Notes: generated by a model from the letters alone, not told the origin. A stretch of 64,000 nucleotides of DNA from Eubacteriales bacterium (GCA_045127215.1 JBGVPV010000046.1:1792-65791), one strand, 5' to 3'; shown: positions 31,703 through 55,667, counted from the first letter of the stretch. Numbers and translations are program-made.

Positions 31703-31756
31703 TGGTGCGGGTAACAGGACTTGAACCTGCACGAAGTCGCCCCCACTAGAACCTGA
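31703..31756 (-). pseudogene. 3-prime fragment of a split tRNA-Leu(CAG), from anticodon loop to CCA; left junction of the element
   Basis: The first 30 nt (tggtgcgggtaacaggacttgaacctgcac) and the last 12 nt (actagaacctga) match the intact tRNA at 55390..55443, with a different 12-nt variable arm. Homology stops exactly at ACCTGA (31751-31756). Confidence 0.85.
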
Positions 31757-31900
31757 TGGTAACGTCACCTCGGTGGAAGGTTTTTCGCACCATTTTTATA
31801 TTATTTATAGTATAGCATAAAAGTCAAGGAAAATCAAGTCTAAAGTGTTAAATCTGCTTTTGGTCTGGACTTTCCGAAAGCGTTGTGATATTGTGTTGTG

Positions 31901-31968
31901 GTTCACAAAAAAGCGAAACTAAAGTTCACAAAAAAGCGATTGCTTTTGTTCGCAATCTGTGATATAAT
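31901..31968 (+). promoter_or_regulatory. Direct-repeat (LytTR-box-like) operator plus promoter upstream of the two-component genes
   Basis: GTTCACAAAAAAGCGA at 31901-31916 and 31924-31939 (23-bp period), abutting TTGCTT (31940-31945), 17 nt, TATAAT (31963-31968). Confidence 0.55.
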
Positions 31969-32050
31969 ATTTTGGGTTTTTGTATTCAAAGATATTTTTT
32001 AGTAGATCTGTGAAAGCAGTTATAATCATAAAATGAAAGAAGGTGTGGTA

Positions 32051-32764
32051 ATGCGAAGGATTGCAGTTCTTGACGATGAAAAATCATATTTAGACTCCGT
32101 CTTAGCACTTTTGGAAGAATATGAAAGTGAACGAAACGAGCATTTTGCGACGGAACGATTTATCAATCCGTCTGACTTTCTTGATAAACTGGAAAGCGGT
32201 GCGGTATATGATATCTATCTTCTTGATATCTATATGCCCGGTGTTACCGGTATGAGTATCGCAACGGAGCTTCGCAGCCGTGGGGTCAAGAGTCCTATTA
32301 TTTTTCTGACCTCCTCCACCGATCACGCTTTACAAGCCTTCGGTGTAGATGCTACCCATTATTTGCTGAAACCCTATACAAAAGACAATTTTTATGTGGG
32401 TATGGATAAAGCGATGCAAAGCATCACCTCCCACAAAGACGACAGCATCGTTTTGAAAGTGGATAATGAATACCGGAGTATCCCGGTATCCAAAATTATA
32501 TACTGCGAAGCCGAAGACAAATATCAGCGGCTCTATTTGGACAAGGCTGAAAGATTGCTTATCCGTATCAGCGGTACAGAACTTTATAAACAGCTTTCGG
32601 AATTTGATTGTTTTTACCGCTGCGGCAGAGCGCATATTGTAAATCTGAACCATATAAGCCGTGTGACACAAGACGGTGTATCGTTCAAAAGCGGTATGGA
32701 TTTGAGTCTTCCGCATACAGTGCAGGCAGGCTTGCGAAAAGCATTCTTTGACTATTTCAATTAG
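32051..32764 (+). CDS. LytTR-family response regulator (AgrA/ComE-like)
   Basis: Receiver domain (IAVLDDE ... IYLLDIYMPGVTG ... IIFLTS ... YLLKP) plus a LytTR DNA-binding domain (IPVSKIIYCEAEDKYQRLYL ... FYRCGRAHIVNLNHI). The start could be 32033 or 32051. Confidence 0.92.
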   Translation: MRRIAVLDDEKSYLDSVLALLEEYESERNEHFATERFINPSDFLDKLESGAVYDIYLLDIYMPGVTGMSIATELRSRGVKSPIIFLTSSTDHALQAFGVDATHYLLKPYTKDNFYVGMDKAMQSITSHKDDSIVLKVDNEYRSIPVSKIIYCEAEDKYQRLYLDKAERLLIRISGTELYKQLSEFDCFYRCGRAHIVNLNHISRVTQDGVSFKSGMDLSLPHTVQAGLRKAFFDYFN

Positions 32765-32779
32765 GAGGTGCCTTTTTAA

Positions 32780-33997
32780 GTGATGCAACATATTGTTTTT
32801 TTGACACTTACGATACTATCTCATATCTGTGCCTCCTTGTTTTTTGCAAAGCCACGTTTTAATAAAATCATCACTGCGGTGATCTGGCTGCTGTACAGCA
32901 GTGTGTTTTTTATGCTCAGTCCAGAGGGATATATCAATTACTTTATTTCCGTTGCGCTGCATCTGACACTGTTTTTTGTCACAACCACAGGTCGTGCCGT
33001 TGAAAAAGGGTTTCTGTTTTTTAGTTATGCCACAACCTATACCTGTTTTTCCACATTATTTAATATGCTGGTGCAGGTCGTGGATAGTATGACGGTCAAG
33101 GTCATTCTTGCCTTTGTGTGTATGGCAGTTATGCAATTTGTTTTGTATAGGCTGCTGCTTCCTTCTTTTCAAAAGGTCGCAAAGTATATTCGTGAGGGTT
33201 GGGGCAAATTCTATGCGGTGGTGCTCAGCTTTTGGGTGCTTATTGTCGGACAGTTCCTGTTTACTTGGATGGAGCTGATAAAAGGTGTTGACAAGATCCT
33301 TTGTTTGATTACGATCGTTGCTTTCTGCTTTACCTATATCGCCATGTTCAACAACATGAAGAACATCGTAGAGCTGTCACGGGAAAAGCAAAAATCCTTA
33401 CATACCGAGCTTTTGCAAATACAGGTAGATGCGCAATCAAAGGAAGCTGCCATCGTGCGGCAAAACCGTCATGATATGCGTCACCACTACCAGGAACTAT
33501 TGTCAATGGCACTTGAAGGGAAAACAGAAAAGATCATCGAATATTTAAAGATTCAGAGTAAAAGCATCGAAGCGATGAATACCGGTCGTTTCTGTGAAAA
33601 TGAAACCATTAACAATATTTTGAAGGTCTTTTATCAAAAGGCTACAAGCCAAAATATCACCATAGACATTCGTGCAGCAGCAAAACCGGATATTTCCGTG
33701 CCGTCTCCGGCACTTGTAACCATCGTTGCGAACATTTTGGAAAACGCCCTTCACGGAGCTGTGGAAAGCAAAGCGAAAAGCCCCAATATTACAGTTTCCA
33801 TTAAACACAAATCAGGTCACTTAGTGATCTCGTGTGAGAACACTTGTAGTCAGTCCCTAAAATTTGAAGAGATGCCCGAATACTTACAAGGCATCGGCAT
33901 CCACAGTGTTATCTCCACTGCGGAAAAGTATAACGGCTCCTGCCGCTTTTCGGCATCTGACGGTGTGTTCAGCTGTACAGTCATTATGGATGAATAA
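32780..33997 (+). CDS. GHKL sensor histidine kinase, AgrC/ComD-like (HPK10-type)
   Basis: About 6 N-terminal TM segments, an H-box NRHDMRHHY, an N-box ILENALHGA and a G-box GIGIHSV. Confidence 0.88.
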   Translation: MMQHIVFLTLTILSHICASLFFAKPRFNKIITAVIWLLYSSVFFMLSPEGYINYFISVALHLTLFFVTTTGRAVEKGFLFFSYATTYTCFSTLFNMLVQVVDSMTVKVILAFVCMAVMQFVLYRLLLPSFQKVAKYIREGWGKFYAVVLSFWVLIVGQFLFTWMELIKGVDKILCLITIVAFCFTYIAMFNNMKNIVELSREKQKSLHTELLQIQVDAQSKEAAIVRQNRHDMRHHYQELLSMALEGKTEKIIEYLKIQSKSIEAMNTGRFCENETINNILKVFYQKATSQNITIDIRAAAKPDISVPSPALVTIVANILENALHGAVESKAKSPNITVSIKHKSGHLVISCENTCSQSLKFEEMPEYLQGIGIHSVISTAEKYNGSCRFSASDGVFSCTVIMDE

Positions 33998-34012
33998 CCG
34001 AATAACGACAAC

Positions 34013-34050
34013 AAAAACTCCTGCCGATTGGCAGGAGTTTTTGTTGTTTT
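34013..34050 (+). terminator. Terminator after the kinase gene
   Basis: aaaaactcctgcc gatt ggcaggagttttt followed by a T-rich tract. Confidence 0.8.
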
Positions 34051-34067
34051 TACGGGTCAAGCACTAA

Positions 34068-34132
34068 CTTCACGACAAAAAAAGCGCACTTCACGACATT
34101 TTTCCGTTTTTAGAGAGCTTATGCATTATAAT
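34068..34132 (+). promoter_or_regulatory. Second LytTR-box-like direct repeat plus activator-type promoter in front of the peptidase/fibre genes
   Basis: CTTCACGACA at 34068-34077 and 34089-34098 (21-bp period). The first copy continues AAAAAAGCG, like the boxes at 31901. TATAAT at 34127-34132 with a poor -35. Confidence 0.55.
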
Positions 34133-34166
34133 TATGATGATTAATGAAGAAAAGGGGTATTTTTCT

Positions 34167-34388
34167 ATGAATATGAAAAAACATACAGAATTTTCAACTC
34201 CGCCTATCGGGAGTAAAATATCACGTTTTGATCATTGCCCATGCTTTTCAGCAAGGAGGAGTTTACTTGCCACAGAGCCGATTTGCTGGTTCTGTCGGTT
34301 TGCAAAGTTTGATCTTTTTGCCGATAAACTTCCGGAAAGCGGTGTTTGTAAACATCCGGTTGAACAAGCAGAAGACAAAAAGAAATAA
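34167..34388 (+). CDS. Small Cys-rich hypothetical protein (73 aa)
   Basis: ATG at 34167, 9 nt after GAAAAGGGG. CPC ... CWFC ... C pattern. First ORF downstream of the box-containing promoter. Confidence 0.4.
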   Translation: MNMKKHTEFSTPPIGSKISRFDHCPCFSARRSLLATEPICWFCRFAKFDLFADKLPESGVCKHPVEQAEDKKK

Positions 34389-34455
34389 CAAAGGTTTTTC
34401 TTTGAAAAAGATTATATAAGAACGCAGTTTTACTGCGAGAAATGAGGTAGCCATT

Positions 34456-35208
34456 ATGGTAAAGGAAAAGACTTCTAAATCCCACAAAACACTAACGATT
34501 ATAGGAATAGTGCTCTGTGTCATTTTAGTGCCGATTCTGCTGATTAATGTTACGCTGATTATCAAGAGTTACGTAAATAAAGATGAGGTTCCGAGTGTTG
34601 GAGGAACATTCCCTATGATCGTACTGACGGACTCAATGTATCCGGATATTAAAAGCGGAGATCTGATCTTCTGTCGTACCGTCCAGGCAGATTCTGTAGA
34701 AGAAGGAATGGTGATATCCTTTTTTGATCCTGCGGGTAACGGAAGCACGGTAGTTACCCACAAGGTGATTGAAATACTCCACAACGAGGACGGGACGCGC
34801 TCGTTCCGTACCAAGGGTATTAACAACAATACCGAGGATAGATTGCTTGTTCCCCAAGATAATCTTGTAGGGCGTTATACGGGGGTGCGTATCCCGTATG
34901 CAGGTAATGTCGCACTCTTTATGCAGACAACATACGGACTTATCGTATGTGTATTTATTCCATTTGTTTTGCTTGTTGCTTATGATATTATTCGCCGCCG
35001 AAAAAACGAGAAGAATCAAAGTAAAGATGTAGCTGCCCTTATGGCAGAGCTGGAAAAACTCAAAGCGGAAAAAGAAGAAAAAATTGACCCCCAATCAGAG
35101 AAGAAGATCTCTTCGACAGAAAATATCGAGAGTTCCGTATCGGAAGAAAAATCCGATGATGAAACTGTTATTCTTCCCTCGGAAGCCACGTCCGGGGATG
35201 GAATATAA
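34456..35208 (+). CDS. Signal peptidase I, archaeal/ER (SipW) type, paralog 1 with long charged C-terminal tail
   Basis: N-terminal TM, catalytic-Ser region VLTDSMYPDIKSGDLI, His region VVTHKVIE, TKGINNN (the GDxN-like box), a second TM, then a 70-aa Lys/Glu/Ser-rich tail. Confidence 0.85.
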   Translation: MVKEKTSKSHKTLTIIGIVLCVILVPILLINVTLIIKSYVNKDEVPSVGGTFPMIVLTDSMYPDIKSGDLIFCRTVQADSVEEGMVISFFDPAGNGSTVVTHKVIEILHNEDGTRSFRTKGINNNTEDRLLVPQDNLVGRYTGVRIPYAGNVALFMQTTYGLIVCVFIPFVLLVAYDIIRRRKNEKNQSKDVAALMAELEKLKAEKEEKIDPQSEKKISSTENIESSVSEEKSDDETVILPSEATSGDGI

Positions 35209-35312
35209 ATTGCCGCGGCAGATGCCGCAAAAAAACCGGCACTGCCGGCAAATATCTTTCCCCGCATAAGGGAAGAGTAAAAACCTACATAATCCGAAAG
35301 GAGATTAAAACA

Positions 35313-35996
35313 ATGATGAAAAACAAGATGATGAGAATTGCTTCCGTTCTTTTGGTAGCGGTTCTCCTTTCCACCTGTGCTATTTCAGGCACTTTCGCAA
35401 AGTACGTAACCTCCAAGGAAAGCACCGATACTGCACGTGTTGCAAAGTTTGGCGTAGACCTTGCTGTTACTGTTGATGGCGCTTTTGCAACCGAGTACGA
35501 TGCAGATACGGCCGCAAACGATGAGCATGGTGTTGCCATTGCAAAGACCGTAGTTGCTGCTACCGGCGATCCTGATAACTTGCTTGCTCCCGGAACCGAG
35601 GGCGACTTGATGGCTTCTGCAACCATTTCCGGCACCCCTGAGGTTGCTGTAAATGTGAAGCAGGAAGCTACCCTTGTTTTAACCGGCTGGGCAGTAGAGG
35701 GTACTTATTACTGTCCTCTGGTTATCACCGTTGATGGCACTGAATTCTACGGTATGGATTATACCTCTGCTGCAGAGTTCATTGCTGCTGTTGAGGCTGC
35801 TCTGGATAGCGACGTGAACTATGCACCCAATACCGATCTGACTGAATCTCACTCTGTGACTTGGGCATGGGCTTTCGAAGGCACCGACGGTAAGCAGACC
35901 GACGAGTTGGATACTGCTCTGGGTAATTACGCTGCCAAGACCGGTGACATCGAGATCTCTTTCACCTACAAGGTTATCGTAACTCAGATCGACTAA
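35313..35996 (+). CDS. TasA/camelysin-like secreted protein with SipW-class signal peptide (putative major subunit)
   Basis: The signal peptide ends in SGTFAKYVTS (compare GGTxAxFxD in TasA/CalY). LAPGTEG and WAWAFEG motifs. Followed by a strong terminator. Confidence 0.75.
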   Translation: MMKNKMMRIASVLLVAVLLSTCAISGTFAKYVTSKESTDTARVAKFGVDLAVTVDGAFATEYDADTAANDEHGVAIAKTVVAATGDPDNLLAPGTEGDLMASATISGTPEVAVNVKQEATLVLTGWAVEGTYYCPLVITVDGTEFYGMDYTSAAEFIAAVEAALDSDVNYAPNTDLTESHSVTWAWAFEGTDGKQTDELDTALGNYAAKTGDIEISFTYKVIVTQID

Positions 35997-36011
35997 TTAG
36001 TTTTTATAATG

Positions 36012-36058
36012 TCTCCCGCCCCGACGTGGCCGGGGCGGGAGATAAACTCTTTTGTTTT
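36012..36058 (+). terminator. Strong GC-rich terminator after the putative major subunit gene
   Basis: tctcccgcccc ... ggggcgggaga 11-bp stem followed by cttttgttttt. Confidence 0.85.
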
Positions 36059-36149
36059 TGATTTTTCACAGTTTCTAACACCTGTTGGGAACTGTGAAAA
36101 GTTAAAAATTTCAATTCAAAAAATATAAAGGGTATAAGGAGGAAGGATC

Positions 36150-37325
36150 GTGCCGGAAACAATAGAAATAAACGAAACGAATAATAGTGTTCGATCAAAC
36201 ACCTCTGCAAATGGAGCTTTTTGGACAGCAATAGCTATTTTGATACTGCTTTTAGTATTGAGTACGGTAATACTTTCAATTCAGCTTTATTCGTTTGCAA
36301 CTATAGATGAGCGTGTTCTATCTATAAAATCAAACACGGATGCTCGTTTCGATGTGTTTTCACTGCAATATGAAAACGCTTCAGGAGAGATAACCGTTAT
36401 CGGAACAGAAGGCGAAAAGATTATTGCACCCGGTACCGATGTTGAGTATGCAGTACGTCTGCGTAATGCCGACAAAGTAGCGCTTGATTACGAGATACTT
36501 CCGACTGCAAAATTTTATTCAGAGTATAAAATTCCTGTTTATGTACGAATTATCGGTCCGGATGAAACCTATGTAGCAGGTGACGCAAAAAATTGGATAC
36601 TGATTGAAGATCTGAATGACACAAGAACTACAGCAACACTGAAAAAGGGTGAATCAGTAGAGTATATTTTTCAATGGAAATGGCCGTATGAGAGTGGAGA
36701 CGACGGATATGACACCTTTCTTGGAGATAACGTATACGAAGAAAATATAGGTGTTATTGTTTCATTTGACGTTTATGCAACGGCAAATACAACTTTAGAC
36801 GATAATGATGGATTGTTCGGAAATGTTTACGGCAATACTTCCTTCATTCTTATTTTCACCGTTTTGCTGCTCATTGCAATCATTATTCTTTTGATTTATA
36901 AGTTCATCAAAAAGCGCAACAAGGATAAAGGACCGACCCCCGTTATCATACCTGCTCCTCAGCAAGAGGTCGAGATTGAGATTGCGCCTGCTCCTGTGTG
37001 CGAACCTTATATTGAACCTGAAGTAAAACAATCTAAGAAGGCGTTTGTTGGTAAGATGTCATTTGTAAATATTGATACTTTGGATCAATACTTTAACGAC
37101 GGTGATACCGTAAGTCTGGAGAAGCTGAAAGCCATGGGGCTCATTCCCGCGAATGTAAAACAGATGAAGGTGCTTGCAAGATACACAGGCGAATTTAGCA
37201 AGGTGCTTACAGTGGAAACTCAAGGAATATCTGCAGAAGCGCGAGTCGCTATTGTGAAGGCAGGCGGAAAAGTAATTATTACCGATGGAGGCACAGATAT
37301 CGCGGAAAACAAGGGTAAGCAATAA
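36150..37325 (+). CDS. Bitopic membrane protein: SipW-type N-terminal segment, TasA-like ectodomain, TM, Pro-rich linker and uL15-like C-terminal domain
   Basis: GTG start 6 nt after AAGGAGG. IQLYSFATID motif. Second TM SFILIFTVLLLIAIIILLIY. The C-terminus FVNIDTLDQYFNDGDTVSLEKLKAMGLI ... KVLARYTGEFSKVLTVETQGISAEARVAIVKAGGKVIIT resembles the ribosomal uL15 C-terminal domain. Confidence 0.75.
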   Translation: MPETIEINETNNSVRSNTSANGAFWTAIAILILLLVLSTVILSIQLYSFATIDERVLSIKSNTDARFDVFSLQYENASGEITVIGTEGEKIIAPGTDVEYAVRLRNADKVALDYEILPTAKFYSEYKIPVYVRIIGPDETYVAGDAKNWILIEDLNDTRTTATLKKGESVEYIFQWKWPYESGDDGYDTFLGDNVYEENIGVIVSFDVYATANTTLDDNDGLFGNVYGNTSFILIFTVLLLIAIIILLIYKFIKKRNKDKGPTPVIIPAPQQEVEIEIAPAPVCEPYIEPEVKQSKKAFVGKMSFVNIDTLDQYFNDGDTVSLEKLKAMGLIPANVKQMKVLARYTGEFSKVLTVETQGISAEARVAIVKAGGKVIITDGGTDIAENKGKQ

Positions 37326-37885
37326 TGAAGAAAAAAGTATTAAGAATAATCTGTACAACATTTCTTTCACTTGTGATGAGTTTCATCATTGGCTTGAGTT
37401 TCTATTCGTTTAATGCCAGAATGGTTCATCACAATTCAATGCCTATGCCGTTTGGCGTGGGTGTTTCGGTAGTCCTCTCGGGCAGTATGGAACCGAAATT
37501 TTCAGCGGGAGATCTTATTGTGGTTGTTGAGGCAGATGATTACGCTATAAATGATATTGTTGTATATCAAAGCGCAAAAAATGCTGTAGTACACCGAATT
37601 ATAGATATTGATGAAGACAGGATTATCACCCAAGGAGATGCCAATAATGTAAGTGACGAACCGATAGACAAAAGCTGCATCAAGGGAAAAGTTTTGTTTT
37701 CAATTCCATACTTTGGATACGTGGTATCATTTCTCAAATCCACACCGGGCACGCTCATTGTACTGGTGCTTGCATTTTTCCTGTTTGAATATTCGTTTAT
37801 ACGGGAGAAGAAAGAACAACGCAAAAAAATAACTGAAATCCGCAATGAGATAGAAACACTCAAAAAGGAGCAGGATATGCAATAA
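37325..37885 (+). CDS. Signal peptidase I, archaeal/ER (SipW) type, paralog 2
   Basis: SGSMEPKFSAGDLIVV, VVHRIIDI and TQGDANN motifs with TM segments at both ends. The start overlaps the upstream stop (TAATG). Confidence 0.9.
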   Translation: MKKKVLRIICTTFLSLVMSFIIGLSFYSFNARMVHHNSMPMPFGVGVSVVLSGSMEPKFSAGDLIVVVEADDYAINDIVVYQSAKNAVVHRIIDIDEDRIITQGDANNVSDEPIDKSCIKGKVLFSIPYFGYVVSFLKSTPGTLIVLVLAFFLFEYSFIREKKEQRKKITEIRNEIETLKKEQDMQ

Positions 37886-37906
37886 AACACGAAAGGGAGG
37901 GTGTCT

Positions 37907-38404
37907 GTGGAAAAGGTTAATAAAAAAACACCCATAGTGTTTTATGTTGGAATCGTATTATTAGGTTTAGTTATCATCAGTTCGTATTTCACGAATGGTT
38001 TATATGCTCGCTATGCTGTGTCGGAGTTTTCCTACGATGACGCAAGGATTGCATCCTTTGACGTAAATATTGTATCGGGCGTCAATCTTTACAGTAAGTT
38101 GATCGAACTTGGTGAAATTCAGCCAGGTGATGAAAGCAGCATATCCTTTACGGTAAACAATAATAGCGAGGTTGCGGTTGCCTTGAATATTACTGCGATT
38201 AATTTGACCGGGAATCTCCCGCTTGATGTACCGCTGAAGGGTACAATCGATGCAAATAGTCCTATTTTTTCAGAAACCTTGAATGCGGGCGAGAGTGCTG
38301 TGCTTACGTTTACAATTACTTGGGATGAAAATAATTCTGATCCTTCTGGTGCGGGAAAAACAGATATTTTGGAGCTGAGAATCGCGGTGGAGCAAGTTGA
38401 TTAA
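37907..38404 (+). CDS. TasA-like small secreted protein with SipW-class signal motif (putative minor subunit)
   Basis: I prefer the GTG at 37907, 6 nt after GGGAGG; the ORF opens at 37901. TNGLYARYAVSE motif followed by DDARIASFDVNI. Confidence 0.65.
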   Translation: MEKVNKKTPIVFYVGIVLLGLVIISSYFTNGLYARYAVSEFSYDDARIASFDVNIVSGVNLYSKLIELGEIQPGDESSISFTVNNNSEVAVALNITAINLTGNLPLDVPLKGTIDANSPIFSETLNAGESAVLTFTITWDENNSDPSGAGKTDILELRIAVEQVD

Positions 38405-38436
38405 AATGCGAGACAAAATGAGTGGAAAGGAGCAAA

Positions 38437-39273
38437 ATGGCCATAAAAAAGAAAGATAATGGAAGAATGAATATCCACATAAGAACAATCGTATGCGCGG
38501 TTTTGGCTCTTGTGATTTTATCGACGATTGCTGTAGGTGGAATATTCGCAAAATACATAGCAGGAACTCAGACGAAAGGCTATCTTTCATCCCCAACGTT
38601 TTATTTTACCAGCGATATATTGAAAGAAACTGCCGTTTCCTATACTCTCAATCCTGGAGAGAACGGTGCTACCGAAGTGTCGTTTCAAGTTCGCAACTTT
38701 GCCGATGAATTACGAATTGCGGATAAAGATATTAGCTTTTCGGTTAATGTAATGCCGTCGGATGGCGTAACCGTTATGATAAACGGTATAGTAACCTCTA
38801 CGGGAACGCTTTTGGCGTCCCCGTCTGACGGTTCTTCTGAAACCGTCACAGTTTCCGGATTAAAAAACGGTCAGACTTATATTATTACCGCAACAGGAGA
38901 TGCCGGATTTGTTAGTACCTTGCGTGCAAGTATCACCGTAAAACCTGACGAGAAGGAGATATACAAGCATTTAGATGTTTCTGATCCGAATTATGTTCTT
39001 CTTACTGTATGGACGAAAAATCTTTCAGGAGCTGTAAATGTAAAGTTCCCGGATGGACTTATACCGGATGGTACGGATAATGTTATGAGTACAGTATACA
39101 ATTATAAAGACGGTTCGTATGTAGCCTCTGAATTTATAGATAGCACAAACTTTGCCCATACTTATTCGTCGCATGTGTATAGATTCTTTAAGACAAATAA
39201 TCAAGATTATACAGCAAGTAATTTTACTGTCAGACTGGGCACTGCTGATGCTATCGAAACAATACCCGAGTAG
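38437..39273 (+). CDS. Secreted protein with SipW-class signal motif (putative minor subunit, 278 aa)
   Basis: ATG at 38437 after GGAAAGGAG. The signal segment ends in VGGIFAKYIAGT. Confidence 0.65.
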   Translation: MAIKKKDNGRMNIHIRTIVCAVLALVILSTIAVGGIFAKYIAGTQTKGYLSSPTFYFTSDILKETAVSYTLNPGENGATEVSFQVRNFADELRIADKDISFSVNVMPSDGVTVMINGIVTSTGTLLASPSDGSSETVTVSGLKNGQTYIITATGDAGFVSTLRASITVKPDEKEIYKHLDVSDPNYVLLTVWTKNLSGAVNVKFPDGLIPDGTDNVMSTVYNYKDGSYVASEFIDSTNFAHTYSSHVYRFFKTNNQDYTASNFTVRLGTADAIETIPE

Positions 39274-39289
39274 AAAGGAGCACTTAGTT

Positions 39290-42200
39290 TTGAAACTTAT
39301 AAAAACAAAGAAATATGTGCTCATGATAGTATTTTTTCTTATGAGCATCTTTTTAATTGTAACTGTTTTTGCTGCAGAAGAGCCTGTTAAAATTGACAAT
39401 AACGGTTCACGCCTTGTCGCAAAACACGCAGAGTTATCTTCGCCGTCATATCAATGGATGATTTCAGACGTGCTTGACAGCACATATTCCAATATCGACG
39501 GTGCGACAGGTCGATACTACGATATAACAGATGAAAACGAAGGTAAATATATAAAAGTATCCGTTAACGGTGTAGAAAGCCAGCCTATTGGCCCAATAGG
39601 AAAGCTTGTTGTCATGGATATAGGAAAGGGTGCAATTAGTCTCGGTACCAGTTACAGCGGCAAGGATTCCGATGGCAATTCCGTTTCCGGCACACATGCC
39701 GCTTCCAACATCTATGTGATAGTCCATAAGGAAAACGGAACCAAGACCGAAAATAACATCGTTTTCAGTGGTAATCTTCCGAGTGCGCCCTTTGATGTGA
39801 CGCTTGCAGGCGTGAATATGGGCACTACCCCAAAAAACAACAACCAGGCACCCGGTAGCAGTGGCTCAAACACGCCGACAACCGGTGAAATCAGAATCCC
39901 TGCCACAAGTAGTGCCGTAAAAAAAGTGACCCTGCGTCTGCGGGATGAGAATATTGTTCGCTACATTTCCTATTACAACGGTAGTGATACAAACCAACCT
40001 GCAACGGTTGCTTCTTCTCTGAAAATAACAAATATCAACGGAGATGGTGAAGTGGAGGGCGGATGTTTATACGTTCCAATCAAACTCGCTCCCGAAGAAA
40101 TTGAAGCATTTGTAAACAGTAAAACAAACTACAACCACTGGAATGCCGGCATTGGTGGAACGGACGGAAACTCTCTTGTTCAGAATTTGCATATTGCAGG
40201 CGGTAAGATACAGGTCGTAACCACGCTGGGCGATAACTGTACAGCTATCGGTGCCGGCGGTAACGGATACTGCCAAATGGAGATCTCCGGCGGTGAAGTT
40301 ATTGCCCATTGCAACGGCACAGGTGCGGCTATTGGCGGTGGCATTGGCTGGAATGCTGCAGCCGGTAAGGCGGACATATTGATTACCGGCGGTAAAATTT
40401 ATGCAGAAAACCACGCAAAAATTACCGCAGCCAAAGACGGAATCAATCATACGGTTGGTGGCGTGGCCATTGGATCCGGCAGCACGTTTCATTCAAGCGG
40501 TAGTAGCGGTACTGTTACGATTACCGGTGGCGAGGTGGAAGCCTATGGAGCTTACGGTAACGGTATCGGTGGCGGCAACAGCTCCTCCTATGCAGGTGGC
40601 GGTGCAACCATTAATATTACCGGCGGTACCGTAAAAGCGAACTCTATTGGTGGCGGAAACAGTGCCAAAGGTGCCGGTGGAGATGCTACGATCACTATTG
40701 ATAATGATGCCAATGTCAGACTGACCAAAGAAGGAACCGATTGCGATTTCTGCGGTATCGGTGGCGGTAACAGTCTTTCCGGTAACGGCGGAAAAGCTAC
40801 CATTACCGTGAAAAGCGGTACTATCAACTCTGACGGCTCCATCGGTGGTGGCGAAGGCGGCGGCACAGGAAATGGTGGCGACGCTACTGTAAATATTTAT
40901 GGCGGTAACCTTACGGCTGCATCTATCGGTGGTGGTACCGGAAGTGTCGGCGGTCACGGCGGCGCAGCTATCGTTGAAGTAACGGACGGATTTATTGAAA
41001 CCGGCTCCATCGGCGGCGGTAAAACCAACAACCCCAATGGTCAACTTGGATATGCCAAAGCAACTATTAAAGGCGGTGACATCGTCGGTCAATTCTTAAT
41101 GGCGGCAGGGGGAACCGAGCGCTGTTCCTTTACGATGACTGGAGGCACACTACACGGTGTGAATACAGCAGATACGTCAAAGTTTATTTATGCGCAACAA
41201 AACGGTGCTGCGGTGTATATGGACGACCCCAATGGTATCGTTTCTATCTTCGGAGGCACCATAAAGGATTGCTCTGCCAAAAATGGTGGTGCTGTTTATA
41301 TGACTGCGGGAACGTTTACCCTTTCCGGTGGCACGATTACCGATTGCCATGTCACAGGAAATGGCGGCGCTGTTTATCTCGGCGGTGGACAAATGACTGT
41401 TGTAGGAGGAAGTATCAAGGCAAACACAGCTAAAAACGGCGCAGGTGCTTACGTTAATGCGTCAACGCCAAACGACGGTGTTTTCGTGAGCGGTGGAGAA
41501 ATCACAGATAATATTGCGGAAGAGAATGGCGGTGGTATTGCCATCAACAACGGATTTTATAAAATGACAGGTGGCGCCGTTGAAGGAAACACATCAACAA
41601 ACGGAAGCGGCGGAGGTATCTATGTAGCGGCCAACGGCGTTGATGTTTTGGTCGATATCCGTAGCGGTTCGGTCAGCAATAACAAAGCAGGCATCAGTGG
41701 AGGCGCGATAGCAGTTGTAGGACAAAACAACGGATTGGAAAATATTTCGGTTACCGTTGGCGTCAATGAGCAACATTATGACGATCAGGGAAATGAGGTG
41801 ACTTGCGATCACGATTATACGGCAGTAGGTATCGTGGTAGAAGCTTGTCCTGAACTCAAAAACAACTACGCAACGAAGAACGGCGGATGTATCTATATCA
41901 CAGGTGGAGTTAAAACAATGCTCAATACATACTGCCTTGTTGAAGAAGGCAGCTCTGCGGCAGACGGAAAATCCAAGAGCAATTTTATGATGGTCGAGGG
42001 CGGTACTGTAAATATTTCCACCGCAGACGGCAACACCGAAGACGGGGGTAACTCCCACGGCAAGATCACAATCAATAACACCATTCATGTTTATGCCGGT
42101 GATATGGACCTTTATGGTTCTATGACAAACCCGCAGATTCTCGCACCGATTACGGTAGACGTTACTACTGAGCGTGGTTCTTACGAGGATCACCGAACAT

Positions 42201-46943: not shown

Positions 46944-47852
46944 ATGATTGTTTACCATTACTGTAGTTTAGATGTCTTCACTAAGATAATATCGGGTAAA
47001 TCAATTCGCCTATCCGATATAACAAAATCTAATGATTCCATGGAAATATTATGGATAACAAAGTACATAGAAGAAATATTTGACGAAGAATTCCAAAAGG
47101 AAACGGAGAAAACAAAATATTTCAAAGAAGACTACCCTAAAGATGTTTTTACGGAATTGAGAGAACATTACTCAAAGGAATTTTTTGATGAGAAGCAAAA
47201 ACTATATTCATATTTTGTCTGTTGCTTTTCCGAAAAAGGTGATCTCCTTAGCCAATGGAGAGGTTATGCAGATGATGGAAACGGTATTGCAATCGGATTT
47301 GACGGTGATATCTTAAAGCAAATAGGAAAGCCTTCGGCAGACGATCCTATTAGTACGGATATTTTTAATTTCAATAAAATCGAATATTCTGAATACTCGC
47401 AAAAAGTGCAAATCAGAAAAATTGCCTCGGATTTGATAACAGAGTTGAAAGAAGTCGCTAAATCCAAGCCTTCTGATATAAAGCAGAATAGTATGAAGGC
47501 ATATAATACATGTTTTCTCAAATTATTTAATTTGTCAATCTTTATGAAAAATCCTTTCTTTAAAGAGGAACAAGAATGGCGTATTTGTCATTGGACCGAA
47601 ATAACTCCTAAGAATAAAGCATCCGGCATTCACATAAATGATGGCGTTACTTTGTCAGATATCGGATACCATCAAAGACGTGATGATATGATTCCGCACA
47701 TTGATTTGAGCTTTGAAAAAAGTTCTAAATCAATGATTAAGGAAATAATTATTGGACCGAAATGCAAAGTTCGCGAAAATGATATAAAGACTTTTTTGAT
47801 TTCTAACGGTATGGATTGTCAAATTTCCAAATCAAAAGGAACTTATCGATAA
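46944..47852 (+). CDS. DUF2971 family protein
   Basis: VYHYCSLDVFTKIISGKSIRLSDITKSNDSME, CCFSEKGDLLSQWRGYADDGNGIAIGF and KNPFFKEEQEWRI are the hallmark blocks of DUF2971 as I remember them. GAGGTG RBS. Confidence 0.8.
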   Translation: MIVYHYCSLDVFTKIISGKSIRLSDITKSNDSMEILWITKYIEEIFDEEFQKETEKTKYFKEDYPKDVFTELREHYSKEFFDEKQKLYSYFVCCFSEKGDLLSQWRGYADDGNGIAIGFDGDILKQIGKPSADDPISTDIFNFNKIEYSEYSQKVQIRKIASDLITELKEVAKSKPSDIKQNSMKAYNTCFLKLFNLSIFMKNPFFKEEQEWRICHWTEITPKNKASGIHINDGVTLSDIGYHQRRDDMIPHIDLSFEKSSKSMIKEIIIGPKCKVRENDIKTFLISNGMDCQISKSKGTYR

Positions 47853-49799: not shown

Positions 49800-50166
49800 T
49801 GATCCGATATCGGATATCAACCAACTGAGCAGGAGGACCAAGCCGACATTCCTTGGGTAGCAAAGCAAACACTCCTGCACAACTGAATAACCTGCCGTAA
49901 GGATACTTGGACGGTAGTTTTGCCACGACAGCAGATTACAAGATCTGTGTCAAGGGAGAAAGACGCACGAAAGTGCGTTCCGAAAGGACTTGACAAGCGA
50001 AACATTACCTACAAAGAAAACGCGCCAAAGGCGTAGGAACGTAAACGGATGTACAGGGACGCGTAATGTGAGAAAGACGCTGAACTTTCTCTCTCGTAGT
50101 TCTCGGATTACGCAAAACGTAATGTCAGCCATCACTTCTGTTGCGGGAAGTGATGGCTTTTTTCTT
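49800..50166 (+). other. Hairpin-dense non-coding region (candidate structured RNA or replication-control/origin region) ending in an intrinsic terminator
   Basis: No RBS-supported ORF. Many short perfect hairpins: tccgatatcgga, gacgcac gaaa gtgcgtc, acgcgcc aaa ggcgt, attacg caaa cgtaat. Terminal agccatcacttc ... gaagtgatggct plus a T-run at 50128-50166. Confidence 0.4.
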
Positions 50167-50193
50167 TGCAATTTTTTAAGAAAGGAGGACCTT

Positions 50194-50958
50194 ATGAAGA
50201 ATTATTTTCAGGTTCAAAGCGATCTGTTTGACTACGAATTAACACCATATGACATCGCCGTTTACAACTATCTGGCGATGAGAAGAAATCGAAGGACAGG
50301 CACAGCGTGGCCTGCGGTATCAAGTATTGCGAAGGATTGCAATATGGGAGAATCAACGGTAAGACGTTCTATCAAGCTCCTAAAGGAAAAAGGACTTGTT
50401 ATTGTAACGCCGCATTACCAGCCAACTCACAAAGGTTGGAATCGTCAGACGGCAAATATCTATGAGATACCGGGGCTGGATTCACAGTATGATACCGCCC
50501 CTGCTACAAAAGATAATGGGCCGTATCTGGAAGGTGGAGAGGAAATATATACAACCAAAATTAATAGAACTAAATCTATTGAACCATCTTCAACTGAACA
50601 GGATTTTGCCGATGAGGAATACGATGAGCTCAAAGGTATTCTGTTCCATAAAGACGAGCTTTACAGATACACTTCTGCCGATATCGCAGAACTTGCGAGA
50701 CGTTCGCTTGACTCATTATGGCAGAAGAAAAAGATGGCTGTTGATGGTATTGATTACACGCAAGACGAGATCAGGCGTCTCATAGTCGAGGAACTCGACC
50801 CGTGGGTAATGTCGGATGCGATTGAGGCGTATCTGACCGCAGATACGGTTAAAAATCCAAGTGCGTACTTGAGCACATGTATTCTTTCTTCTGCTATTAA
50901 CTATGGCAGTAAGATTGCAAGACAGGCTGAGAAGGATCACCGTGACGGTAAATGGTGA
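50194..50958 (+). CDS. Winged-helix replication-initiator-like / HTH protein
   Basis: ATG at 50194 after AAAGGAGG. LTPYDIAVYNYLAMRRNRRTGTAWPAVSSIAKDCNMGESTVRRSIKLLKEKGLV is a wHTH typical of Rep/DnaD-like element proteins. Confidence 0.75.
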   Translation: MKNYFQVQSDLFDYELTPYDIAVYNYLAMRRNRRTGTAWPAVSSIAKDCNMGESTVRRSIKLLKEKGLVIVTPHYQPTHKGWNRQTANIYEIPGLDSQYDTAPATKDNGPYLEGGEEIYTTKINRTKSIEPSSTEQDFADEEYDELKGILFHKDELYRYTSADIAELARRSLDSLWQKKKMAVDGIDYTQDEIRRLIVEELDPWVMSDAIEAYLTADTVKNPSAYLSTCILSSAINYGSKIARQAEKDHRDGKW

Positions 50959-51045: not shown

Positions 51046-51066
51046 ACTAAAAGAAAGGAAATCAAA

Positions 51067-51387
51067 ATGAAAAACCAAGAACAAAAAACAGTAATTATTC
51101 CGTTCCGTGTCACACCCGCGGAGAAGGAAAAGATCGAAGAAATGTCATACGGACATTACAAGCTGATGAGTGATTTCATCAGAGAATGTATCTTTAAAAA
51201 AGATATTATTATCATCGACGGAGCTGACAAAATTGCCGATGAGCTTCGCCGTATCGGAAACAATATAAACCAACTTACAAGAGCCGCAAATGCGGGAATT
51301 ATCTCTGTGGTTGACCTAAGAGAAACAAGAAAGGAGCTGGCAGAGCTATGGCAATCGTTAAATTCGTTGCAGCGAAACGGACTATAA
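51067..51387 (+). CDS. mobC: MobC-family relaxosome accessory protein
   Basis: RIGNNINQLTRAANAG motif (MobC G-N-N-L-N-Q signature). 106 aa. Overlaps the relaxase gene. Confidence 0.85.
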   Translation: MKNQEQKTVIIPFRVTPAEKEKIEEMSYGHYKLMSDFIRECIFKKDIIIIDGADKIADELRRIGNNINQLTRAANAGIISVVDLRETRKELAELWQSLNSLQRNGL

Positions 51388-52328
51388 AAAGTGCGCTGAA
51401 TTATATTACAAATCCCGAAAAAACAAATGAAACTTTAGTATCGGGTGTCAACTGTACTCCCGAGAGCGCGGAGAGTGAATTTGATTTTACTAAAAGAAAA
51501 TTCAACAAACACGGTGGACGTGAGTACTATCACATCGTCCAATCTTTCAGTCCCGATGACAATATTACTCCCGAGATCGCACACGAAATAGGTATTAAAT
51601 TTGCGGAATATTTCAAGGGATATCAGATAGTAATCTCCACTCATTGTGACAAAGATCATATTCACAACCATATGATTATGAACTCCGTAAATTATAAAAC
51701 GGGAAAGAAATTTCATCAGAGCAAAGAAGATCTAATGCGCGTCAAAGAGTTTTCAAACAAGCTCTGCCTAGAGTACGGTCTCTCTCAAACCGAGCCAAAA
51801 TCCGATTGGAAAGAGATGCCCAAATGGAAAGCGAAGCTTAGAAATGACGCTTATTATGCGGCAAAAGTGTCACGCACAAAAGAAGAATTTATAAAGCTTA
51901 TGAAGAGCTATGGTTACAAAGTAAAATGGGAGGACGGACATAAATATATCACGTTCACCACGCGCGACGGAAAGAAATGCCGTGACAATAAACTCTTTGC
52001 CGAGCAATTATTAAGAGAAAATCTCGAAATTTATTTTGCTCTCGGAGGTTGTGATTCAGGACTAGCGGAGCAGTACGCGGAATACAGAACTCCCGTTAAA
52101 GATAACGTAGGTTATACCTTCGGCAATGGATTATTTATGTTACTCAAAAATCTGCTTGAGAGTGTGCCTCCCGAGATGCAATACGAGCCTCCAATAGAAC
52201 GAGGTGAGCTTGATAAAATGACGCTCATGGAACTTGAAGCTATGGGAATTAAAGTCGAGCCAAAGGCTTTTGTTTACTACTCGGCAAACGAACCTTACGA
52301 GGAAGAGCGTATGGGATTTTATCTATAA
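51348..52328 (+). CDS. Relaxase/mobilization nuclease (MobA/VirD2-type)
   Basis: YYHIVQSFSPDD and the histidine triad STHCDKDHIHNHMIMNSVN. Confidence 0.9.
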   Translation: MAIVKFVAAKRTIKSALNYITNPEKTNETLVSGVNCTPESAESEFDFTKRKFNKHGGREYYHIVQSFSPDDNITPEIAHEIGIKFAEYFKGYQIVISTHCDKDHIHNHMIMNSVNYKTGKKFHQSKEDLMRVKEFSNKLCLEYGLSQTEPKSDWKEMPKWKAKLRNDAYYAAKVSRTKEEFIKLMKSYGYKVKWEDGHKYITFTTRDGKKCRDNKLFAEQLLRENLEIYFALGGCDSGLAEQYAEYRTPVKDNVGYTFGNGLFMLLKNLLESVPPEMQYEPPIERGELDKMTLMELEAMGIKVEPKAFVYYSANEPYEEERMGFYL

Positions 52329-52454: not shown

Positions 52455-52622
52455 ATGAAGAAAAATAATAGCCTCCCAATCGAAAGAGTCACCTTTGAAT
52501 ACGTTGGAACTGACAAGCAGTTCAATGAATTTCTGCGCTCAGTCATCCACGATTACGTGACAGATGATAAGACCCTGCCTGAGCAGAAAATAACCGATCA
52601 TAACGAGCAAAATATTGCTTGA
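52455..52622 (+). CDS. Small hypothetical protein (55 aa) upstream of the recombinase
   Basis: ATG 6 nt after AAGAAAGGA, with a compact position between the relaxase and recombinase genes. Below the ORF-track cutoff. Confidence 0.4.
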   Translation: MKKNNSLPIERVTFEYVGTDKQFNEFLRSVIHDYVTDDKTLPEQKITDHNEQNIA

Positions 52623-52657
52623 TATGAAATATATTTCAGAAGAAAGGAAAAGAAAAA

Positions 52658-54283
52658 ATGAAAGTATGGTTATACTATCGCTTGTCCAGAGATGAGGACA
52701 AGAAACTGAACTCACTCACCAACCAAAAGAAAATACTCGTGGACTATTGTGACAGCCACGGATATGAGATCGTCGGTGAGTCATTCGACGATAACGTCAG
52801 CGGTATGCACTTTGACCGTGACGGTATCGAAAAAATTTATGAGGAAGTGGATAAGAAAAGCATTGATGCGGTCGTGGTCAAGGACCTATCCCGTTTGGGT
52901 AGGCACAAGACACAGACCGCTATTTTTATCGACTACCTTCGTCAGAACGATATCCGAGTGCTGTCGGTCACCGAAAACATCGACACAAGCAACGAGGATG
53001 ACGAGCTTATCGTTGGCTTCAAGGGAATATTCAACGATATGTACTGCCGCGATATCTCAAAGAAGATACGCGCGGGATACAAGCAAAAGCAGAAATCGGG
53101 GATAGTCCTTATTCCTCCTATGGGTTACTTCAAGGATAAGAACACCGGAAAGGTTGTAATCGTAGAGGAACAAGCCGAGATTGTCCGACGGATATTCACG
53201 CTCTATCTTGACGGATACGGGCTTAAAGCAATTGCCAATATACTCAATGAAGAGGGGATAAAATCCCAAGGATACTATCAGCAGCAGATACTCGGAAAAA
53301 GGCTTGGCAACAATAAACCCGAGATCGCGCACCGCTTCCTGTGGGAGAGCACAGGTGTTAAACGAGTTCTGCAAAATGAGTTCTATACGGGAACTCTCGT
53401 CTGCCATAAGTCCTACACAAATAAAATAAACCACGTGAGGAAAGAACTACCTCCCGAGGAACATTATCGACACGAAAACTTTGTGCCTGCTATCATATCA
53501 AGAGAGATATGGGAGCAGGCACAATTTTTACTATCCGAGAAAGTAAGAAATAATGTGAGAGCATCAAGCGGTAAGCCTTGCCACAGATACACGGGACTTC
53601 TCAAATGCGCTGACTGTGGTTCGAGCTTCAGTTGTAAGACAAGGCGGTGGAAGAATAAACCCGACAGATACGAATACGTCTGCAACGGATACCACCGCTA
53701 CGGCAGTGAAAACTGCACCTCTCACAGAATCGACGAAGCCGACCTCGACAACCTCATATATGAGGAGTTGATGAGTATCAAGGAAGATGCACAAAAGAAT
53801 TACGACAGCATTGAATCCGACGTCAAGCGTTGGCTGTCGCAAAAGAACACCGCAGAAAAGCGTATACGAGAGCTTACGGCAAAGCTGGAACAGCGAAAGA
53901 GCGACCAGCAGTTGATATTGCTTGAACGTATCCGTGATCGAGAACACGCAAGTGTGTACGATGAAATGCTTGTAAAATGCGATGCGGACATCAAGACTCT
54001 AACAGAACAGATCGATGCGATACGAAACTTCGAGGAAACTATCCGCAAGAGAAAAGCCGAGATCAAAAGCGGAATCGATATGCTGGACGAGATCATAGCT
54101 GAGGGAGCTATCAGCAACACGCATCTGCGAATGCTGATAAAGGAAATACTCATAGCAGAGGTGGACGGAAAGCTGAGGATAAAGATACAGATGAAAGCGA
54201 AGTTTAGCTCACACATTGATTTTATCCCCGACTATGACGATCCGATGTATCAGAGTATGGGGCCGTATCAAATAAAGTTATAG
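52658..54283 (+). CDS. Large serine recombinase
   Basis: Resolvase catalytic N-terminus (VWLYYRLSRDED, VVVKDLSRLGR), a recombinase domain, a Cys4 zinc ribbon (CADCGS ... CNGYHRYGSENC) and a C-terminal coiled coil. Confidence 0.93.
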   Translation: MKVWLYYRLSRDEDKKLNSLTNQKKILVDYCDSHGYEIVGESFDDNVSGMHFDRDGIEKIYEEVDKKSIDAVVVKDLSRLGRHKTQTAIFIDYLRQNDIRVLSVTENIDTSNEDDELIVGFKGIFNDMYCRDISKKIRAGYKQKQKSGIVLIPPMGYFKDKNTGKVVIVEEQAEIVRRIFTLYLDGYGLKAIANILNEEGIKSQGYYQQQILGKRLGNNKPEIAHRFLWESTGVKRVLQNEFYTGTLVCHKSYTNKINHVRKELPPEEHYRHENFVPAIISREIWEQAQFLLSEKVRNNVRASSGKPCHRYTGLLKCADCGSSFSCKTRRWKNKPDRYEYVCNGYHRYGSENCTSHRIDEADLDNLIYEELMSIKEDAQKNYDSIESDVKRWLSQKNTAEKRIRELTAKLEQRKSDQQLILLERIRDREHASVYDEMLVKCDADIKTLTEQIDAIRNFEETIRKRKAEIKSGIDMLDEIIAEGAISNTHLRMLIKEILIAEVDGKLRIKIQMKAKFSSHIDFIPDYDDPMYQSMGPYQIKL

Positions 54284-54301
54284 TATAATTATAATATAGT
54301 C

Positions 54302-54335
54302 AGGCAGGTAGTAATCAAACTACCTGCCTAAAATT
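54302..54335 (+). terminator. Terminator after the recombinase gene
   Basis: aggcaggtagt aatcaa actacctgcct hairpin. Confidence 0.7.
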
Positions 54336-54394
54336 AAATCCTAGTTGAAAAAAAGCAAAAACCATGTTATAATTATATAAAAAAGGAGGATATT

Positions 54395-55279
54395 ATGGAT
54401 TTTAAAAATACTAAATCATATTCGAACAATTTTGAATCTTTAATTTTAAATATGCCATCATTAAATGATCAACAACAATATTGTAATAGGTGGTTGAAAC
54501 ATTATGCTGATATTATAAAAAATTCAGACAAAATAGGGTTTATCGATTGGGAAATAAGAAGTTGGAAATCTATAAAAGAGATATATGCCTCAGCCATTTT
54601 TTATAAAGAAGCAGAATATGCCTACGCAAACAGATGTATGAGCTCGTATTATTTTTTGCTTTATTATAGTCTTTTTCATGCAATGTGGTCAACACTATGT
54701 TATTCAGTTAATATTAATATTGAAACTTTATTGCAACTTACACATCAAAATTTAGGAAATTCATTCAAAAATACATTTTGTACGGGTAATAATGCTATTG
54801 TCAAAGAAGAAATATATACTACTTTTACTCAGTTAAAATTATTGCGTGAATATTATAGTTATACACCCCCATTAAATCTTTCACTTTACAAAGAAGAATA
54901 TATAAAAAAACTTGACGAGTGTTTGACACAATGCTTTCAATTGAGCAACTTACACTCTTTCCTACTAGAAAAATCATTCCAGAAGCATGGATGTATTCAA
55001 AAAATTTCCACTAGTAATGAACGAGAGTATTTTTTGGAAATGTTTAAAAAAGCGGTAGCACCTAAAAACACGGACGACAATAACTGTATTTTAGATGAAG
55101 CAGATAATAATCGAAAAAAAGAAATCTTATGTCAAGGTGTTGGGGGGTACACATCAATACGTATTGAACTTGATCATACTTTTGATGAATTTAGATCATA
55201 CAATGACTCAAGTCGATTTTTTTCAAAAGGAATTAGTTCGCAAGATATTTATTCCTATATTTATGATAAAATTGTATAA
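54395..55279 (+). CDS. AT-rich orphan hypothetical protein (294 aa)
   Basis: AAAGGAGG RBS and an intact ORF. Codon usage is visibly much more AT-rich than its neighbours. No motif recognised. Confidence 0.7.
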   Translation: MDFKNTKSYSNNFESLILNMPSLNDQQQYCNRWLKHYADIIKNSDKIGFIDWEIRSWKSIKEIYASAIFYKEAEYAYANRCMSSYYFLLYYSLFHAMWSTLCYSVNINIETLLQLTHQNLGNSFKNTFCTGNNAIVKEEIYTTFTQLKLLREYYSYTPPLNLSLYKEEYIKKLDECLTQCFQLSNLHSFLLEKSFQKHGCIQKISTSNEREYFLEMFKKAVAPKNTDDNNCILDEADNNRKKEILCQGVGGYTSIRIELDHTFDEFRSYNDSSRFFSKGISSQDIYSYIYDKIV

Positions 55280-55342
55280 TAAATAATTTGGCAGACACGC
55301 AACATAAGCTAATGAGCCGTGGTTACGTGTCTGCCAACAATT

Positions 55343-55384
55343 TTCAAAAGAGAAAAGCCTCGAAAACGTAGTGTTTTCAAGGCT
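55343..55384 (-). terminator. Terminator of the element-borne tRNA-Leu
   Basis: On the minus strand: agccttgaaaac ... gttttcgaggct hairpin followed by TTTTCTCTTTT, immediately 3-prime of the tRNA. Confidence 0.7.
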
Positions 55385-55389
55385 TCCGA

Positions 55390-55476
55390 TGGTGCGGGTA
55401 ACAGGACTTGAACCTGCACCTCCTTGCAAAGACTAGAACCTGAATCTAGCGCGTCTGCCAGTTCCGCCATACCCGC
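55390..55476 (-). tRNA. tRNA-Leu (anticodon CAG), CCA-encoded, long variable arm
   Basis: The reverse complement GCGGGTATGGCGGAACTGGCAGACGCGCTAGATTCAGGTTCTAGTCTTTGCAAGGAGGTGCAGGTTCAAGTCCTGTTACCCGCACCA folds as a cloverleaf: 7-bp acceptor stem, CTAGA/TCTAG anticodon stem, loop TTCAGGT, T-loop TTCAAGT. Confidence 0.93.
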
Positions 55477-55586
55477 ATATTAAGTTTTCCTTTAATTTTT
55501 ACACGGAGTGAGGTCTCCGAAGCGGGACATGTAACAAGTCGTTAAGGCGTTCACCAAGTGTGACGATGTGTCACTGAAGTGACACG

Positions 55587-55625
55587 ACCTGAATCTAGCG
55601 CGTCTGCCAATTCCGCCATACCCGC
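55587..55625 (-). pseudogene. 5-prime fragment of the split tRNA-Leu(CAG), position 1 to the anticodon loop; right junction of the element
   Basis: 39 nt match 55438..55476 with one substitution (A at 55610 versus G). Homology starts exactly at ACCTGA (55587-55592). Confidence 0.85.
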
Positions 55626-55667
55626 ATATGAGGTAATAGGTAAGAGTGAATAGTGAAGAAGTGAGAA

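Follow-up and report, generated by a model that had tools for sequence, protein, structure and literature searches.

A probable integrative mobilizable element of an Eubacteriales bacterium, inserted by its large serine recombinase into the anticodon loop of a tRNA-Leu(CAG) gene and carrying a whole replacement tRNA

We analyzed a stretch of 64,000 nucleotides from an Eubacteriales bacterium (GCA_045127215.1, JBGVPV010000046.1:1792-65791), referred to below as the window, in which a tRNA-Leu(CAG) gene is present as two halves separated by about 23.8 kb of DNA. The segment between these halves, 31757-55590, is very probably an integrative mobilizable element (IME) inserted by its own large serine recombinase into the anticodon loop of the host tRNA-Leu(CAG), and it contains, 110 bp from its right end, an intact tRNA-Leu(CAG) gene oriented like the target. 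In the mechanism that we propose, an attP site of about 40 bp would recombine with the tRNA gene, which serves as attB, by a 2-nt staggered exchange at the dinucleotide GA corresponding to U33-C34. Because no sequence is duplicated on integration, each end of the element is left with one dead half of the host gene, and the complete element-borne tRNA-Leu(CAG), which has its own terminator, would replace the split gene. Excision would restore the host tRNA exactly, and the circular form could then be transferred by a helper conjugative element via the relaxase and MobC proteins of the IME.

A single intact tRNA-Leu(CAG) gene was detected by ARAGORN in the window, at 55390-55476 on the minus strand. 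The region 31703-31756, likewise on the minus strand, is the 3' part of a tRNA-Leu gene and comprises the CCA end, the 3' strand of the acceptor stem, the T arm, the variable arm (GGGGGCGACTTC) and the 3' strand of the anticodon stem. This fragment, the B side of attL, terminates in the hexamer ACCTGA (31751-31756), the last two bases of which form the GA crossover (31755-31756), and is followed by TGGTAACGTCACC. The same hexamer occurs inside the intact gene (55438-55443) and for a third time at 55587-55592, preceded by GTGACACG and followed by the 5' part of a tRNA, which extends to 55625 and not, as was initially assigned, to 55629. The host 5' half, or B' side of attR, thus spans 55591-55625 on the minus strand, from the GA crossover (55591-55592) to the tRNA 5' end. 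The three junctions and the coexistence of a split and an intact tRNA-Leu(CAG) had been noticed in the first-pass annotation of this DNA and were confirmed here by ARAGORN, by reading of the sequence and by a profile built from 45 tRNA-Leu genes. The profile detected the left fragment with an E-value of 2.5e-9 (profile positions 1-54) and the right one with 6.8e-9, so that the fragments are not chance matches.

When 31703-31756 and 55593-55625 are joined, they form an 87-nt tRNA-Leu(CAG) gene that is accepted by ARAGORN, in agreement with the earlier proposal that the fragments represent a second complete allele. The two differences from the intact gene described there were also found, namely a 12-nt variable arm (GAAGTCGCCCCC in the fragments vs CTCCTTGCAAAG in the intact gene) and a single base of the D loop (CCAATTCC vs CCAGTTCC). 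Two metagenome contigs (L086 and L089; labels of this kind denote related loci and contigs) contain uninterrupted tRNA genes with 100% identity to the joined allele, including its 5' half, and therefore it is a real gene that has been split in the window. The empty site next to the amylase gene that was expected in the first-pass annotation was not found in this way: none of the nine intact tRNAs recovered in a metagenome scan for the joined allele is syntenic with the window. The 3' end of the split host tRNA is followed, as had been predicted, by a terminator-like hairpin on the minus strand (31668-31699, a 14-pair stem with a T run) that also closes the amylase gene on the plus strand. A second terminator-like hairpin, with a 15-pair stem and a T run (55353-55387, minus strand), belongs to the element-borne tRNA and is conserved in L001, L002, L051 and L070.

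The only recombinase of the element is a protein of 541 amino acids encoded at 52658-54283 on the plus strand. It has the Resolvase (PF00239, 3.7e-28), Recombinase (PF07508, 7.9e-26) and Zn_ribbon_recom (PF13408, 5.8e-15) domains of Pfam, an intact catalytic motif YYRLSRDE (Ser10) and a second motif DLSRLGR. Its assignment as a large serine recombinase and as the sole recombinase, made from the first inspection, is thus upheld, and no tyrosine recombinase (Phage_integrase) was found in the open reading frames (ORFs) of the element or in the flanking ORFs scanned. The nearest solved structure is the catalytic domain of TnpX (2mhc, E = 1.6e-20), and the match is limited to this domain. The top NCBIfam match, XisF, is far below the cut-off of that model, and the Ccr models match weakly. 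Low target specificity, a trait of the Tn4451/TnpX family, is lacking in this recombinase, and no DUF4368 domain was detected by Pfam. Exact-protein look-ups of the amylase and the recombinase of the window gave no match. A phage origin was considered and rejected: the best identity to a phage collection is 30%, and no phage structural genes were found in the element.

In a scan of one genome per species, 84 recombinase relatives were detected, and 80 of them were retained; these have 48-98% identity to the recombinase of the window, and nearly all come from metagenome-assembled genomes of gut Clostridia. In 65 of these loci the sequence covers the C-terminus of the recombinase and extends at least 600 bp downstream. 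An intact tRNA-Leu on the opposite strand follows the recombinase in 54 of the 65 (within 350 bp in 42), and in 36 of those 54 at least one tRNA 5' half is found within 1 kb beyond it. In seven further loci the downstream tRNA is itself already split, with the 3' half first, and in the remaining four no tRNA-Leu was found downstream. The occurrence of a whole or split tRNA-Leu at this position in 61/65 loci points to high target specificity. Recombinases with 48-63% identity adjoin tRNA-Leu(UAG) genes. Upstream of the recombinase gene, 36 loci encode a relaxase homologue and 12 a MobC homologue; the cargo is not shared.

Conserved arms flank the tRNA halves across this family. Every 5' half that could be anchored in the relatives is preceded by a P arm with the consensus tYACACCGAGGTGRCGyt, and the upstream 3' halves are followed by TGGTAACGTCACCTCGGTG, the reverse complement of the P-arm core. 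The ends of the window element carry exactly this signature. Its left end (31757-31775, plus strand) is the P' arm of attL, TGGTAACGTCACCTCGGTG, found after the tRNA 3' halves of L010, L014, L061, L065 and L073, among others; its right end (55572-55590, plus strand) is the P arm of attR, CACTGAAGTGACACGACCT, and the conserved P arm precedes a tRNA 5' half at about 49 sites in the relatives. Joining of the two ends predicts an attP of the form CACTGAAGTGACACGACCT-GA-TGGTAACGTCACCTCGGTG, and the predicted attB is the restored tRNA, CCCCCACTAGAACCT-GA-ATCTAGCGCG. The two arms of attP are inverted repeats with 13/19 matches when centred on GA, vs 2-8 matches at ten shifted centres. A putative attP with imperfect dyad arms had been suggested from the joined ends before, and it stands, with arms of 19 nt instead of 5 nt.

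Comparison of loci with different targets locates the strand exchange. Among CAG-targeting loci, variants in which the hexamer is GACTGA or AGCTGA leave no more than CTGA in common. Members of the UAG clade have AGCAAA, AGCGAA or AACAAA as the hexamer at attR, against CCTAA in the tRNA, and their attL shows CCTAA followed by TGC, so that attP and attB share only the two nucleotides AA. Taken together, the CAG and UAG hexamers place the exchange at the last two bases of the hexamer, GA or AA, and this point coincides with the symmetry centre of attP. In terms of the tRNA, the crossover consists of U33 and the wobble base 34. The ACCTGA core proposed earlier is therefore present at all three junctions as a hexamer, whereas its informative part is the GA dinucleotide only. 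A 2-nt exchange without other shared identity is a hallmark of serine integrases, and the sites described here have the other properties expected of such an enzyme, that is, a short attP with imperfect inverted arms and almost no identity between attP and attB. The argument that a very short core fits a serine integrase is strengthened by the UAG clade; its second part, a naturally dyad-symmetric target, did not hold. Dyad symmetry of attB about the crossover was rejected by the symmetry test, attB being asymmetric about GA.

Several lines of evidence show that the intact tRNA moves together with the element. In L001 and L051, recombinase genes that are 91-94% identical to that of the window at the DNA level are followed by the same set of tRNA allele, terminator and spacer, and the flanks past the tRNA fragment in these two loci are unrelated to the window. 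The pairing of acceptor stems is informative where both ends are present and the alleles differ; in all four such loci (L033, L036, L059 and L066) the acceptor strand of the left 3' half finds its partner in that of the inner 5' half and does not pair with the intact tRNA. The acceptor strand of the 5' fragment differs from that of the neighbouring intact tRNA in about 20 loci, which argues that the fragment is not a local duplication. The claim that the element supplies its own intact tRNA with its own terminator, 110 bp from the right end, is well supported by the module in L001 and L051 and by the acceptor stems. In L001, about 30 nt upstream of the element-borne tRNA (4332-4385) nearly match the host flank of the window at 55626-55660 (GTAATAGGTAAGAGTGAATAGTGAA). 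The tRNA module may have been captured from a host resembling that of the window.

A number of observations weigh against the interpretation of this segment as a mobile element supplying a tRNA under host control. No contiguous attP, as expected of an excised or circular form, was found in the 80 related loci, and the attL/attP-junction pattern had no match in viral contigs. No empty site was found in the same species: the related contigs L090 and L091, with a 99% identical amylase gene, lose their similarity to the window at or before the tRNA (L090 before the terminator), and right-flank gene look-ups led to contigs that end short of the tRNA. Neither a recombination directionality factor nor an origin of transfer (oriT) was identified in the element, and no search was aimed at oriT. 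In 15 loci the tRNA lies at most 350 bp from the recombinase and no 5' fragment passing the filter follows; these loci probably carry mostly decayed or lost attR sites, and with attR decayed, many copies of the family may be immobile. Finally, the first 45 or so nucleotides of the spacer between the replacement tRNA and the right end recur in L070 (10856-10900), directly upstream of a tRNA, and in L001 (4529-4575), after the 5' fragment. They thus resemble a native tRNA upstream region, and the replacement tRNA may have a promoter of its own.

Some of these observations would also suit an element that is now a decayed, immobile remnant, the spare tRNA being simply the working gene of the host. 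Besides the 15 relatives and the failure to find a circular form or an empty site, such an account could draw on the segment 54262-55289 (G+C content 0.32), an insertion of about 1 kb between the recombinase gene and the tRNA that is absent from L001, L002, L051 and L070. Nevertheless, the window has retained both att arms, an intact recombinase ORF that includes the catalytic motif, and intact relaxase and MobC genes, and a backbone 91-94% identical in DNA to copies in other genomes indicates recent spread. We thus regard a remnant as improbable, and the element may be active at present.

Serial insertion at one tRNA, which had been raised from the start as an alternative for the window, is real in the relatives. 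In six loci (L010, L021, L023, L061, L065 and L076) the first tRNA downstream of the recombinase is itself interrupted and has a P' arm behind it, so that a further element used the spare tRNA of the resident as its target. Two or three serial units, each consisting of a P arm and a tRNA 5' half, are present in L042, L068, L058, L080, L049 and L046. For the window itself two successive integrations, with the intact tRNA or the right fragment left over from an earlier element, are very unlikely and are not needed to account for its structure: it contains a single 3' half, a single 5' half, only one recombinase and only one matched P/P' pair, and a second event would add a fragment. L001 and L051 have the same module of spacer and P arm on the right side of the intact tRNA. 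The single insertion at the anticodon loop originally proposed accordingly remains our preferred explanation, the two ends being inverted repeats of each other. The least credible account, to which we attach hardly any weight, is a classical tRNA island in which attP brought a tRNA 3' half, the intact tRNA is an element/host hybrid and the right 5' fragment is an unrelated relic: islands of tyrosine integrases most commonly insert at the anticodon loop and restore the tRNA (PMC4383910), and the 3' halves at 31703 and 55390 are identical except for the variable arm, but no tyrosine recombinase was found in or beside the element, the inverted repeat flanking both fragments is not predicted by that model, and the hybrid tRNA that it requires is ruled out by the presence of the same module elsewhere and by the four loci in which the 5' fragment, and not the 5' half of the intact tRNA, is the pairing partner of the displaced 3' half.

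The position of the spare tRNA suggests how it could be expressed after insertion by the serine recombinase. It always has the orientation of the target and adjoins attR, which would place it downstream of the host tRNA promoter. A near-consensus promoter is present upstream of the split host tRNA (55757-55785, minus strand; TTGACA, 17 nt, TG-TATTAT; 11/12 matches) and is a candidate driver of read-through into the replacement tRNA; the 110-bp spacer gave no call of a sigma-70-like promoter. Spacers of the UAG clade measure only 35-70 nt, leaving little room for an independent promoter. The placement and the short spacers are consistent with read-through from the host promoter and removal of the leader by RNase P, and the spare tRNA may provide a fitness benefit. 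Between the host tRNA 5' end and the putative promoter there is a 7-nt tandem repeat, AGAGTGC, in 8.6 copies (55643-55703). The part of the spacer from the replacement tRNA to the P arm (55477-55571) includes a degenerate P-arm-like copy, TTCACCAAGTGTGACGATGT (55550-55569), to the left of the real P arm; this copy is present in L001 and not in L051.

Arrays and fragments that could be left by past elements were observed in relatives. In L047 (18850-19400) no recombinase gene accompanies an intact tRNA-Leu(UAG), two P-arm/5'-half units lie beyond it at a distance of 18-27 nt from each other, and this array looks like an island-free scar of past elements. An intact tRNA in an island-free context had been named beforehand as a test of the single-insertion reading; L047 offers one, although the P-arm/5'-half scars that follow it mean that the test is not clean. 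The contig JAZSIP010000094.1 (L061/L070) has two recombinase genes, both partial, a pair of tRNA 3' halves that each have a P' arm and are separated by 1.8 kb, one intact tRNA and no 5' fragments, and appears to be a decayed stack of elements. Such scars and losses could arise via recombination between the repeated tRNA halves or via excision with non-matching attL and attR.

Among known elements, mobilizable Tn4451 and Tn4453 of Clostridia are similar in having a large serine recombinase (TnpX) and a 2-bp crossover. The crossover dinucleotide of Tn4451 is GA, as in the window; its mobilization gene, TnpZ, is of a type different from that of the window element. Unlike the latter, Tn4451 carries no tRNA. 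Its serine integrase recombines at a 2-bp identity, has low target specificity and does not target tRNA genes (PMC5704250). The Islander class A islands of tyrosine integrases (Williams 2002, PMC4383910) resemble the window element in their anticodon stem-loop target, the preserved tRNA function, the tRNA fragments at island ends and the tandem arrays at one tRNA. They differ in the enzyme and in having a shared crossover block, where the window element has a serine enzyme and 2-nt identity. The two features that define an Islander-type island, a tyrosine recombinase and an attP tRNA fragment that regenerates the gene, are both missing here: attP contains no piece of tRNA, a whole separate tRNA is carried, and both the 3' and the 5' dead halves remain.

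The elements SPbeta/spsM, skin/sigK, A118/comK and fdxN (XisF) are also inserted into a gene by a large serine recombinase without duplication, and precise excision restores it. In these systems a protein gene stays broken until excision, or the target is dispensable; serine integrases of mobilizable elements likewise disrupt dispensable protein-coding genes (PMC5704250, PMC5357655). The window element departs from these protein-gene splitters by its RNA-gene target and its full replacement copy. The staphylococcal cassette chromosome (SCC) elements at rlmH use large serine recombinases as well (CcrA, CcrB, CcrC). They insert repeatedly at one site and form composite arrays. Insertion of SCC occurs at the 3' end of a protein-coding gene without inactivating it, and these elements have neither a replacement gene nor a relaxase module.

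The enzyme and the element type are thus of known kinds; the apparent novelty lies in the way a tRNA target, a crossover that includes the wobble base, a whole spare gene and stacking through that gene are combined. According to the literature, only tyrosine recombinases are known to target tRNA and tmRNA genes, and serine recombinases are not (PMC4383910); a survey of large serine recombinases groups target sites solely by the disrupted protein-coding genes, never mentions tRNA and describes a multi-targeting clade that mostly carries DUF4368 (PMC10083194). We found no earlier description of serine integrases at tRNA genes in the literature, and a mention in the TIGER paper (Mageeney 2020) is possible. 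The chances seem to us evenly balanced that this is the first described clade of large serine integrases with a tRNA gene as its natural attB, in which the crossover includes the wobble base (U33-N34) and a change of the attP dinucleotide from GA to AA accompanies the switch from tRNA-Leu(CAG) to tRNA-Leu(UAG), and in which the whole replacement tRNA, lying behind the host promoter, becomes the next landing site, so that elements accumulate, exchange tRNA halves with their hosts and leave behind series of 5'-half scars recording past occupancy.

These observations contradict the working rule that tRNA genes are targets of tyrosine integrases only, and they present a different solution to the problem of inserting into a gene whose function is retained, namely a whole spare gene instead of a matching fragment. 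They also explain orphan tRNA 5' halves. Since programs that search for tRNA islands expect mostly 3' fragments, such orphan halves would be missed or misread. With short att sites and an attB in the conserved tRNA-Leu of many gut Clostridia, the recombinases are candidate tools for site-specific insertion in organisms that are difficult to engineer, and the central dinucleotide could serve as a handle for retargeting between isoacceptors.

The main ORFs of the element, 18 in number, are all on the plus strand. A Rep-like gene, MobC/NikA and a relaxase gene are located directly upstream of the recombinase gene. The first encodes an HTH_36 protein resembling replication initiators (49990-50958; PF13730, 3.6e-12; phrog_428, replication initiation, 8e-14) that is 92% identical in L057; the second a relaxosome accessory protein of the MobC/NikA type (51067-51387; PF21983, 1.3e-19; PF05713, 1.6e-13); and the third a MobA/VirD2-type relaxase (51348-52328; PF03432, 4.5e-41). 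No match to VirB4, VirD4 or other families of type IV secretion systems was found among the 18 ORFs. The element thus combines its own integrase, a relaxase and an accessory protein, without genes for a type IV secretion system or a coupling protein, as is characteristic of IMEs; its classification as an IME of about 23.8 kb follows from the lack of secretion-system, phage structural and tyrosine recombinase genes. Towards the right end, the order is an ORF of 294 amino acids (54395-55279), the terminator, the intact tRNA on the opposite strand, the 110-bp spacer and the end of the element. The 294-residue product, encoded in the low-GC segment, has no match in Pfam, NCBIfam, PADLOC or PHROGs.

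The remaining genes form the cargo. At the left end, a LytTR response regulator (32033-32764) and a GHKL histidine kinase (32780-33997) are followed by a cluster at 34456-44851 that contains genes for two signal peptidases of the SipW type (34456-35208 and 37325-37885) and for several small proteins without family matches, together with one ORF of up to 1899 amino acids for which Pfam gave no hit; this is probably a secreted or surface-protein cluster. No homologues of it were found in the related loci, and therefore it represents variable cargo. An ORF of 391 amino acids within it (36150-37325) has an odd C-terminal match to Ribosomal_L27A. Further to the right, a DUF2971 protein (46944-47852) matches weakly to the candidate defence family PDC-S31.

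Variation between strains was also noted. In L091 (2227-2447), where the amylase gene is 99% identical to that of the window, the terminator is followed by an 18-nt stub comprising only the 3' end of the tRNA. Unrelated DNA of 170 bp separates this stub from a different terminator, after which the 3' end of another tRNA-Leu is reached at the contig edge. The tRNA site is thus occupied differently in that strain. A second strain-variable region, of 6.5 kb, is located at 23381-29882 of the window and is missing from both same-species contigs, L090 and L091; within it lie the gene of a Flg_new/GLUG surface protein and unknown ORFs of 488, 695 and 195 amino acids.

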